Below are positions 9,623-10,807 of a stretch of 32,000 nt of DNA, in pieces; within the stretch, counting starts at the first letter, position 1; each line of letters starts with the position of its first letter. The position numbers and the translations under genes are program-made. This DNA comes from Pseudoalteromonas tetraodonis (GTDB lineage Bacteria; Pseudomonadota; Gammaproteobacteria; Enterobacterales; Alteromonadaceae), in NCBI RefSeq assembly GCF_002310835.1, contig NZ_CP011041.1, positions 900,001 to 932,000 on the forward strand. Reading direction: 5' to 3'. Below the pieces are notes generated by a model. It made no database searches. It had not been told where the DNA came from and was given only the letters and a program-made list of their open reading frames with translations.

Positions 9623-10048
9623 ATGCAACGGGTTTTAATTGTTGAAGATAATATTAGGGTACAGCAGGTACTCAAACATACTGCTGCTCAATACCTTGAT
9701 GTTTTGGTTGATTTTGCCTCGTCACTTACTCAATGCAAACAACTCCTGAGCCAAACAAGTTACTCACTCGCCTTAGTTGATTTGCCACTTAGTGGACAAA
9801 GCGATATGGATGTTGCTCGCTATATTTTATCGCAAGGTATCCCTACGCTATTAATGACAACGCAATTAGAAGAGTCCACGCGCTTAAAAATACTGGAATT
9901 AGGGATTATTGATTACATTATTAAAGATAACCGCGATTCTTATCTTTACGCTATTAAATTAGTTGCACAGTTACTGCGTAATCAAGGGCGTAAGGCGCTA
10001 ATTGTTGATAATTCCTTGTTAAGCAGTAGTTTGAATAGGGTCTGTTGA
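9623..10048 (+). CDS. Response regulator, 5' fragment: a complete REC1 plus the first strand of REC2, then read-through into the inserted element
   Basis: MQRVLIVEDN (acidic pocket), LALVDLPL (phospho-acceptor Asp) and DYIIKD (Lys) define REC1. ALIVDNS then begins a second receiver. The frame enters the element at 10037 and stops at TGA 10046-10048. The start is chosen at ATG 9623, after AAGGGAG. The ORF track uses GTG 9599. Confidence 0.8.
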   Translation: MQRVLIVEDNIRVQQVLKHTAAQYLDVLVDFASSLTQCKQLLSQTSYSLALVDLPLSGQSDMDVARYILSQGIPTLLMTTQLEESTRLKILELGIIDYIIKDNRDSYLYAIKLVAQLLRNQGRKALIVDNSLLSSSLNRVC

Positions 10049-10301
10049 TCTTTCAGGGTTAAATTTGTTCAATCTAGGGGCGATTTAATCGCGGCGCGAG
10101 GTTTGTAACCTAGTGGGCTAAGTAAAAATCGAGCAACAAAGAGTAAATTGCCCCTAGGCAGAACCCTTCGGGCAGCGTGTGTTTGGCATTTATGCTACGT
10201 TATCGCCTATTTATGGGGAGTAACCACACTACATAGACTCTGTCTTGCCTAAAAACCAAACACACAGCTGCAAATTTAACCTCGAAAGATAAACAGACCC
10301 T
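10037..10301. mobile_element. Non-autonomous inverted-repeat element (MITE-like), non-coding and highly structured
   Basis: The terminal inverted repeats are GGGTCTGTTGATCTTTCAGGGTTAAATTTG (10038-10067) and CAAATTTAACCTCGAAAGATAAACAGACCC (10271-10300), which pair at 27 of 30 positions. Internal local hairpins form at 10074-10087/10144-10157 and at 10172-10186/10256-10271. There is no ORF inside. G+C is about 44% by my count. Removing 10037-10301 restores the response-regulator frame. Confidence 0.7.
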
Positions 10302-10307
10302 CAGCAA

Positions 10308-10670
10308 ATGCTCGAAAAACAGTTATTTGATGTTATTACTGCTGATAATAGCGCTCAAGCATTGCATATACTTAACCATAATAGGGCAATTAAGTTAGTC
10401 ATTACTAATCATAATTTAACTGATATGAATGGGTTTGAATTAATTAGAGCAATTCGAAATGTTAAAAGTCGTGAGCAATTAGCTATTATTGGTCTGGCCG
10501 ATGTATATAGTTATGGTGTTGCCACGCAGTTTATTAAATCGAGTGCAAATGACTTTTTAACTAAGCCCTTTACTCATGAAGAGTTTCATTTTCGAGTGGT
10601 AAAAACTATGGAATCGCTATGGCTGGGTGAAGCTATAAGAGCTGATTTATCCCTCGACGCGACTGAGTAA
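10308..10670 (+). CDS. Response regulator, 3' fragment: the remainder of REC2, a pseudo-receiver
   Basis: Receiver fold with LTKPF (conserved Lys), but Asn at the phospho-acceptor position (LVITNHNLTDMNG). There is no Shine-Dalgarno before ATG 10308. It is in frame with the 5' fragment once the element is removed. Confidence 0.7.
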   Translation: MLEKQLFDVITADNSAQALHILNHNRAIKLVITNHNLTDMNGFELIRAIRNVKSREQLAIIGLADVYSYGVATQFIKSSANDFLTKPFTHEEFHFRVVKTMESLWLGEAIRADLSLDATE

Positions 10671-10752: not shown

Positions 10753-10800
10753 CGCACCAATGCAGTATTTTGTTTAAAAAAAGCGCACCTAAATGGTGCG
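10753..10800. promoter_or_regulatory. Candidate NtrC enhancer sites upstream of glnK
   Basis: A strong site, CGCACCTAAATGGTGCG (10784-10800), has a perfect GCACC-N5-GGTGC core matching TGCACCANNNTGGTGCA. A half-site, CGCACCA, begins at 10753 about 31 bp upstream. The sites sit about 60-110 bp upstream of the sigma54 motif. Confidence 0.5.
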
Positions 10801-10807
10801 CTTTTTT
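10776..10807 (+). terminator. Rho-independent terminator after the response-regulator gene, overlapping the NtrC-like site
   Basis: AAAAAAAGCGCACC-taaat-GGTGCGCTTTTTT. Confidence 0.6.

Follow-up and report, generated by a model that had tools for sequence, protein, structure and literature searches.

A split receiver gene and its alleles

The 32,000-nt stretch of the Pseudoalteromonas tetraodonis genome analysed here (contig NZ_CP011041.1, positions 900,001 to 932,000; hereafter the window) contains two adjacent plus-strand reading frames, annotated in strain GFC as two 'response regulator' genes and separated by a 263-bp non-coding element (10038-10300). The upstream open reading frame (ORF; 9623-10048) is the 5' fragment of a response-regulator gene and encodes a first receiver domain (REC1; Pfam Response_reg over residues 4-108), approximately the first 12 residues of a second receiver (REC2), and three element-encoded codons (R-V-C) that are followed by the stop codon TGA at 10046-10048. 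Direct reading of the sequence places a Shine-Dalgarno-like motif, AGGGAG, ahead of its start codon (ATG 9623), and its exact 141-aa product is annotated in GFC (ATD02439.1 / WP_244186371.1). The 3' fragment (10303-10670) carries the rest of REC2; its annotated ORF begins at ATG 10308, its exact 120-aa product is likewise annotated (ATD02440.1 / WP_244186372.1), and it covers positions 17-107 of the Response_reg profile, with the first 16 positions missing. No Shine-Dalgarno-like motif was seen on direct reading upstream of ATG 10308. The evidence assembled below makes it very probable that the element is a MITE (miniature inverted-repeat transposable element) of a large family sharing its ends with ISSod6-like insertion sequences (ISs) of the IS5 family, and that it inserted into, and broke, a single response-regulator gene.

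Removing 265 nt in silico yields a single 260-aa ORF with two Pfam Response_reg stretches, in which the break point lies about 12 residues into the second receiver; the TTAA site into which the element inserted falls at codon 138 of this REC-REC gene. An earlier, sequence-only reading of this DNA had already described the upstream stop codon, the downstream ORF at 10308-10670, the lack of an ORF in the segment between them and the restoration of one frame by a 265-nt deletion, and all of these points were borne out (the longest internal ORF measures 35 aa, and the open-reading-frame list holds none above that length inside the element). The comparison with relatives that it had proposed gave the continuous gene it expected: uninterrupted 260-aa orthologues occur in other P. 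tetraodonis and Pseudoalteromonas strains, with 98% identity to the joined sequence, and the neighbourhood of the intact orthologue matches that of the window, with an S10 peptidase gene upstream and P-II and ammonium transporter genes downstream.

The empty and filled forms of the site can be compared directly. In one empty-site strain the flanking DNA is 98.0-98.7% identical to the window, with the alignment running up to position 10033 and resuming from 10303. The nearest empty allele is TTTGATTAAGCAAATG (in a longer reading, ...AGTAGTTTGATTAAGCAAATG) and reads TTTGAT-TA-AGCAAATG at the target, as compared with TTTGAATA[263]TCAGCAAATG for the filled allele, for which the window reads ...AGTAGTTTGAATA[263 bp]TCAGCAAATG. 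The difference in length between filled and empty sites is 265 nt, or 263 + 2, and within this one species both the filled and the empty form of the site occur. In the six nucleotides next to the element the window departs from the nearest empty allele at two positions (T>A at -3 and A>C in the right TA; 10030-10037 and 10301-10306), and divergence away from the junctions is approximately 1.5%.

Two metagenome contigs (L124 and L125) carry the same filled allele, with 316 of 316 nucleotides identical across 10012-10327, a span that includes the element and both junctions. Relative to the window, their receiver-gene sequences show 4 and 12 differences, respectively, in 783 nt. The filled allele is therefore segregating in nature and is not brand new. 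The suggestion that the insertion was a recent event holds only in part, given that the filled allele is also found beside a flanking gene that has diverged by up to 12 of 783 nt. It should also be noted that the element and its junctions are identical in the type-strain genome and the two contigs while the receiver gene varies, which may mean either that conservation is stronger in the element than in its host gene or that recombination has shuffled the flanks.

The split gene, which the annotation lists as two 'response regulator' proteins, is most probably a null allele, because translation would stop three codons into the element and the downstream fragment would lack both the beta-1 strand of its receiver and a ribosome-binding site. 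Insertional inactivation by MITEs is well documented (PMC10969869). Between the receiver gene and glnK/amtB there is a strong intrinsic-terminator-like hairpin (10777-10807; 13 pairs and then a T run); as the receiver gene has this terminator-like structure of its own, polarity on glnK/amtB is unlikely.

The joined gene (9623-10670) specifies a REC-REC protein without an output domain. Most Pseudoalteromonas homologues, at approximately 59% identity, are 406-aa REC-REC-GGDEF diguanylate cyclases of the PleD type, and the 260-aa form looks like a paralogue or derivative without the GGDEF domain. At codon 219 of the joined gene, in the 3' fragment, the window copy encodes serine, within an SGANDF motif, at a position that is glycine in all listed homologues, and at codon 20 it encodes threonine instead of isoleucine. 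S219 is one hint of relaxed constraint, and together with Thr20 it may reflect decay following disruption.

The element, its family and its target site

The element is bounded by 30-nt terminal inverted repeats, the left one, GGGTCTGTTGATCTTTCAGGGTTAAATTTG, at 10038-10067 on the plus strand and the right one at 10271-10300 on the minus strand. The two arms pair at 27 of 30 positions (three mismatches), as the sequence-only reading had reported, and no such pair arose in 100 shuffles; a search for inverted repeats also recovered the pair. The outer 16-20 nt of the left repeat are identical to the ends of ISSod6, and its outer 17 nt, GGGTCTGTTGATCTTTC, are presumed to be the transposase-binding end; the right end of the MITE is the counterpart of ISSod6's left inverted repeat (IRL). 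Between the repeats lie two hairpin arms, both defined by the consensus fold of 47 copies. Arm H1 (10068-10163) consists of a base (10068-10071/10160-10163), a middle helix (10075-10090/10141-10156), an upper helix (10093-10104/10126-10137) and a tip (10111-10113/10118-10120), and arm H2 (10173-10270) of a base (10173-10184/10258-10270), an inner helix (10194-10207/10236-10248) and a tip (10217-10218/10224-10225). A junction mini-hairpin, CCCTTCGGG (10164-10172), sits between the arms within the highly conserved motif GAACCCTTCGGGCAGC.

These two long hairpins, the mini-hairpin and a multi-branch fold closed by the terminal stem had been predicted from the sequence, and each was recovered by repeat search and folding. 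The repeat search returned internal inverted pairs at 10067-10090/10141-10164 and 10177-10195/10247-10265, and in the minimum-free-energy fold of the 265-nt stretch the terminal stem closes a multi-branch junction (-106.7 kcal/mol, z = -8.6). Folding of the opposite strand is just as favourable (-107.5 kcal/mol, z = -8.65). A scan of the element found no promoter-like or terminator-like site in the window copy.

Scanning for the exact pattern GGGTCTGTTNATCTTTCNNGGTTAA, with one genome per species, identified at least 120 loci with the same terminus. Among the loci listed, the hosts are Vibrio, Pseudoalteromonas, Colwellia, Pseudocolwellia, Psychromonas, Thalassotalea, Litorilituus, Celerinatantimonas, a metagenome-assembled genome of Francisellaceae, and two short Psychrobacter contigs. 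Complete small elements are present at 75 of these loci, mostly 262-312 bp in length with a mode of 264 bp; the other loci are contig ends, truncated copies, solo ends or remnants of 46-103 bp. Pseudoalteromonas chromids carry the element at up to 21 places per replicon, none of them annotated, and the best matches show 90-92% identity to the window copy. Subfamilies defined at 88% identity or more track host genus, with one in Pseudoalteromonas, two groups in Colwelliaceae and one in Vibrio. The proposal that this is a non-autonomous, MITE-type element is thus upheld by its copy number, the lack of an ORF and the filled/empty polymorphism.

The flanks of the 75 complete copies define the target. 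The dinucleotide TA stands on the left in 68 and on the right in 63, and the flanking trimers are YTA on the left in 65 and TAR on the right in 58. Left and right flanks combine freely (CTA|TAA 18, TTA|TAG 14, CTA|TAG 14 and TTA|TAA 6), which indicates a target duplication of 2 bp, the TA within a YTAR target, and not a duplication of 3 or 4 bp, because the two trimers are unequal and assort freely. Duplications of 3 bp (TNA) and 4 bp (YTAR) were rejected on these grounds, and one of 5 bp is likewise not indicated. At the window locus, the left TA (10036-10037) is shared with the empty allele, the empty site TTAA fits the YTAR target, and the TC at 10301-10302 would be the decayed right copy of TA. 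Such decayed right copies (TC, TG or GA) occur in 12 of the 75 copies, five of them with TC, so the TC of the window is unexceptional. The previous statement that the flanks show no clear target duplication therefore does not stand, the TA/TC pair being recognisable as a decayed duplication once the family and the empty site are considered.

Placement within genes is rare. A 120-aa ORF would span the restored site in only 2 of 57 copies, compared with 67.5% of random TA sites, indicating selection against insertion into genes.

Several variants and contexts of the family were also observed. Deletion derivatives of 46-103 bp that retain little beyond the two terminal repeats occur at L022, L018, L048, L044, L051 and L136:262-312, and in Vibrio sp. 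PP-XX7 one of these derivatives lies immediately against the left end of an ISSod6-like IS, whose TA it shares. Longer subfamilies of 276-277, 290 and 311-312 bp (e.g., L052, L003 and L007) contain extra modules of 12, 26 or 47-48 nt, which are placed at hairpin tips or at a stem base and leave the remaining fold intact. One copy (L087:1980-2408) lies 12 nt upstream of a flavin mononucleotide (FMN) riboswitch (RF00050, 120 bits). Pseudoalteromonas-type copies are found on Psychrobacter contigs of 332 and 559 bp (L027 and L117), and these may represent either horizontal transfer or assembly contamination.

A proposed IS5-family partner

The partner IS was found only through a search of plasmids with a 36-nt query from the end of the element, which gave a match of 20 of 20 nt beside an 'IS5-like element ISSod6 family transposase' on the megaplasmid of Shewanella oneidensis MR-1. 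ISSod6 on this megaplasmid is 879 bp long with perfect 16-nt repeats, GGGTCTGTTGATCTTT, and reads TTA|GGGTCTGTTGATCTTTCGAG...AAAGATCAACAGACCC|TAA. Its 252-aa transposase matches Pfam DUF4096 and DDE_Tnp_1 and NCBIfam transpos_IS5_3 (278.6 bits against a cut-off of 110). ISSod6 probably falls in the IS427 subgroup of the IS5 family, a subgroup that generates duplications of 2-4 bp. The right end of the MITE matches ISSod6 positions 1-20 in most copies (in the window element at 95%), and in Vibrio copies the match extends to as many as 29 of 30 nt over positions 1-30.

Related ISs with transposases 64-79% identical are present in Pseudoalteromonas sp. HL-AS2, Aliivibrio salmonicida, Vibrio alginolyticus, other Vibrio spp., Alteromonas and Psychromonas. 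Their ends read TA|GGGNNTGTTGATCTTT, with the general form TA|GGG(C/G/T)(G/C)TGTTGA(T/C)CTTT...|TA, and IS copies are flanked as (Y)TA|...|TA(R) at eight loci (L129, L131-L134 and L135-L137, with L135 represented by its right end only). The HL-AS2 chromid carries both kinds of element, the MITE at 7-8 places and the IS at five. On this chromid, approximately 240 nt separate one ISSod6-like IS (L131) from a TnpB-family RNA-guided endonuclease gene. The IS5 transposase of the HL-AS2 chromid IS (WP_024600859.1) is also annotated in Aliivibrio salmonicida, and the presence of the same protein in both hosts implies recent horizontal spread.

The features of the element are those of a MITE: it is short, bounded by terminal inverted repeats, without a transposase gene, multi-copy, associated with a target duplication, and found as both filled and empty sites. 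A relationship to the ISSod6 lineage is suggested by matching terminal repeats, by the same target and duplication length, and by a partner that encodes an IS5-family DDE enzyme. No autonomous element was found in the 120 copy-bearing loci listed, and where a locus had no partner end nearby, it contained no transposase ORFs. Because neither the window nor these loci contain a transposase, mobilisation must presumably take place in trans, for which the presence/absence polymorphism and the co-occurrence with ISSod6-like ISs would provide indirect support. In the proposed course of events, an ISSod6-like DDE transposase encoded elsewhere would bind the terminal repeats and insert the element at TA, duplicating the dinucleotide, after which the right TA would have mutated to TC and the flank base at -3 from T to A. 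The two hairpins and the conserved junction would be a trait of the family, maintained along its proliferating lineages and not evolved at this locus, the fold being kept either by selection acting on source copies or by palindromes correcting themselves in a strand-symmetric way.

It should be emphasized that several observations weigh against this interpretation. The duplication at the window copy is imperfect (TA/TC) and is accompanied by the additional flank change at -3. The IS copies observed in Pseudoalteromonas and Vibrio end in GGGCGTG or GGGGCTG, not GGGTCTG, and the exact cognate IS in Pseudoalteromonas is not among them. In comparisons of the MITE core with the interiors of four ISs by blastn-short, there was no similarity beyond the terminal ~30 nt, and searches with the ISSod6 transposase (tblastn) were negative in the 32-kb window and in approximately 900 kb of copy-bearing loci. 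Moreover, the loss of function of the split gene is read from domain boundaries only. An origin by internal deletion of the IS is not supported; the element has only its ends in common with the IS and therefore counts, in the usual terminology, as a type II MITE.

Comparison with known elements places the family among small bacterial repeats while setting it apart from each of them. The outer repeat GGGTCTGTTGATCTTT(C) is identical to that of ISSod6-like ISs, with similarity to the IS left end reaching ~30 nt in some copies, and both kinds of element have TA flanks in a YTAR context and occupy the same marine gammaproteobacterial hosts; the window element differs in its size (263 bp compared with ~880 bp), in having no transposase, in a core unrelated to the IS interior, in repeats lengthened to 30 nt and in its two internal hairpins. 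Bacterial MITEs that have TA flanks, fold stably and lie mostly between genes form a known class (PMC2229807). Like the present family, the Correia/NEMIS, ERIC and RUP repeats have terminal inverted repeats with TA at their termini, are found chiefly in intergenic DNA but occasionally disrupt genes, and give transcripts predicted to fold very stably, and RUP is likewise linked to one particular IS by its ends and TA target (PMC2229807). However, those repeats are ~100-170 bp in length, form one long stem-loop and are each confined to one genus or family, whereas the present family is ~264 bp, folds as a three-way junction with two covarying arms and extends over several families of Gammaproteobacteria. 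The CIR repeats of Caulobacter and Brucella likewise consist of two independently folding arms and a linker in a phylogenetically conserved fold, but they are without terminal inverted repeats or a demonstrated target duplication and have no sequence relationship to the present family (PMC2229807). Tn3-derived inverted-repeat miniature elements (TIMEs; PMC4133298) are also small, non-autonomous and bounded by inverted repeats, and share the outer GGGTCTG, but they have 5-bp duplications and Tn3-type repeats of ~38 bp, in contrast to the 2-bp TA duplication and IS5-type ends found here.

The conserved fold and alternative explanations

The fold was investigated in an alignment of 47 copies of 258-268 nt using RNAalifold, and the consensus consists of the closing terminal stem, arm H1, a mini-hairpin of two pairs and arm H2. 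Changes on both sides are seen in 32 of 64 pairs, compared with 23 in shuffles and 12-18 when the partners are slid; 96.7% of cells are paired (84.6% in shuffles, 36-45% with partners slid), and the covariation score is 0.341 (0.124 in shuffles, at most 0.08 with partners slid). None of 500 shuffles reached the observed values. Compensatory changes affect 20 of 27 pairs in helices 3-5 of H1 and 6 of 11 basal pairs of H2, and the CG pair of the mini-hairpin is replaced by UA in 10 copies. Stem sequences vary by subfamily (for example, AGGGGC/GCCCCT, AAAAGC/GCTTTT, AAAACG/CGTTTT and CTATGC/GCATAG), and the junction and loop motifs GAACCCTTCGGGCAGC, CGTTATCG and CTGCCTTG are near-invariant across genera. 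On the strength of this alignment, the branched fold is shared by the family as a whole and has been preserved unusually well, with compensatory changes seen from genus to genus.

Measures of strand preference gave a different result. An apparent RNA signal on the plus-strand fold (140 G-U compared with 37 A-C cells) was rejected as an ascertainment artefact of folding one strand, since G-T and A-C stand at 87:87 over the 85 pairs that both strands predict; the two strands also fold with mean energies of -97.1 and -97.0 kcal/mol. The orientation of copies relative to flanking genes (++ 15, -- 8, -+ 9, +- 9) shows no significant bias, the co-directional classes standing at 15 versus 8. Within subfamilies, the rate of change is 4.2% in paired and 5.3% in unpaired columns (odds ratio 0.79, p = 0.026), and the outer repeats change at 2.3%, a low value that is partly forced by the use of an exact end pattern to find the loci. 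Rfam 15, which includes group I/II introns and ribozymes, gave no match in the window at gathering score; permissive thresholds returned chance-level hits only (E ~1-8), and 18 diverse copies were also without a relevant match. There is consequently no evidence for a strand-specific RNA in these comparisons, because mismatches are strand-symmetric, orientation is unbiased and no Rfam family matches. Of the sequence-only suggestion of a structured-RNA module, then, the branched fold is real and conserved by compensatory changes, but strand preference, orientation bias and an Rfam family are all absent. Our reading is that resident copies would decay almost neutrally, with pairing either kept along proliferating lineages or restored by template-switch correction.

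A further reading, compatible with a MITE insertion and adding a function to the conserved fold, is that the element has also been co-opted as a structured module, with the three-way junction acting either as RNA (an RNase III substrate, a transcript stabiliser or a small RNA) or as single-stranded or cruciform DNA required for propagation. Transcripts of bacterial MITEs are known to affect neighbouring mRNAs (PMC2229807, PMC10969869), and the pairing and covariation of the 47 copies above shuffled and slid controls, the near-invariant junction and loop motifs, and the tolerance of extra modules at hairpin tips and one stem base are all consistent with such a role. We nevertheless regard it as unlikely, given the equality of the two strands in mismatches and folding energy, the non-significant orientation counts, the nearly equal rates of change in stems and unpaired positions, the lack of a promoter-like or terminator-like site in the scanned window copy, and the negative Rfam results for this and 18 diverse copies. 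In addition, template-switch correction of quasi-palindromes can yield compensatory changes without selection. It is similarly doubtful that the junction, comprising the two covarying arms and the near-invariant GAACCCTTCGGGCAGC closed by the terminal repeats, is under selection because it is functionally required. If this were true, the junction would either serve ISSod6-like IS5 transposases as a folded DNA or RNA cofactor in transposition or be an exapted host module across marine Gammaproteobacteria, and the element would be an unusual structure-dependent MITE instead of a passive deletion derivative.

The remaining alternatives concern the origin of the element and the fate of its transcript. 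The IS630/Tc1-mariner superfamily also inserts at TA in CTAG-like targets and duplicates the TA, and the TA duplication in a YTAR context would fit a MITE of that type. RUP, a TA-flanked bacterial MITE, has been attributed to IS630-Spn1 (PMC2229807). Such an affiliation is nonetheless very improbable here: the ends are identical to those of ISSod6, its transposase belongs to the IS5 family by both Pfam and NCBIfam, and ISSod6-like elements share the same TA flanks; no IS630-type element with these ends turned up, although no search aimed at IS630 elements was made. The sequence-only reading had suggested a Tn3-derived TIME as a possibility on account of the outer heptamer GGGTCTG, which presumably also begins the Tn3 end, and this shared heptamer is all that the element has in common with Tn3. 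That origin can be set aside with near certainty, the duplication being 2 bp rather than 5 bp and the 30-nt repeats matching ISSod6-like IS5-family elements over 17-30 nt; nor is a Tn3-type transposase or resolvase found nearby. Equally remote is the idea that the segment is cut out of the transcript (as a self-splicing intron or a comparable intervening sequence), with the 260-aa protein still made. Exact removal of 265 nt from a highly structured element does restore the frame, but this follows trivially from the insertion of 263 + 2 nt into an intact gene; copies lie overwhelmingly between genes and occur in both orientations, none matches an intron or ribozyme in Rfam, and the terminal inverted repeats and TA duplication are signatures of a transposon.

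The insertion of an ISSod6-related MITE would thus explain the two adjacent 'response regulator' genes in the P. tetraodonis GFC annotation as the halves of one broken 260-aa REC-REC gene. Elements and events of this type are both already known, and the searched literature, which did not extend to ISfinder, contains no published description of this particular ~264-bp family. These data define a ~264-bp MITE family with an identifiable IS5-family partner across Vibrio, Pseudoalteromonas, Colwellia, Psychromonas and their relatives. Of interest is that an element without a transposase keeps two internal hairpins by compensatory change and with no strand preference. The family breaks assemblies at contig ends and is unannotated in public records, and recognising it would help in annotating marine genomes and in calling their pseudogenes.

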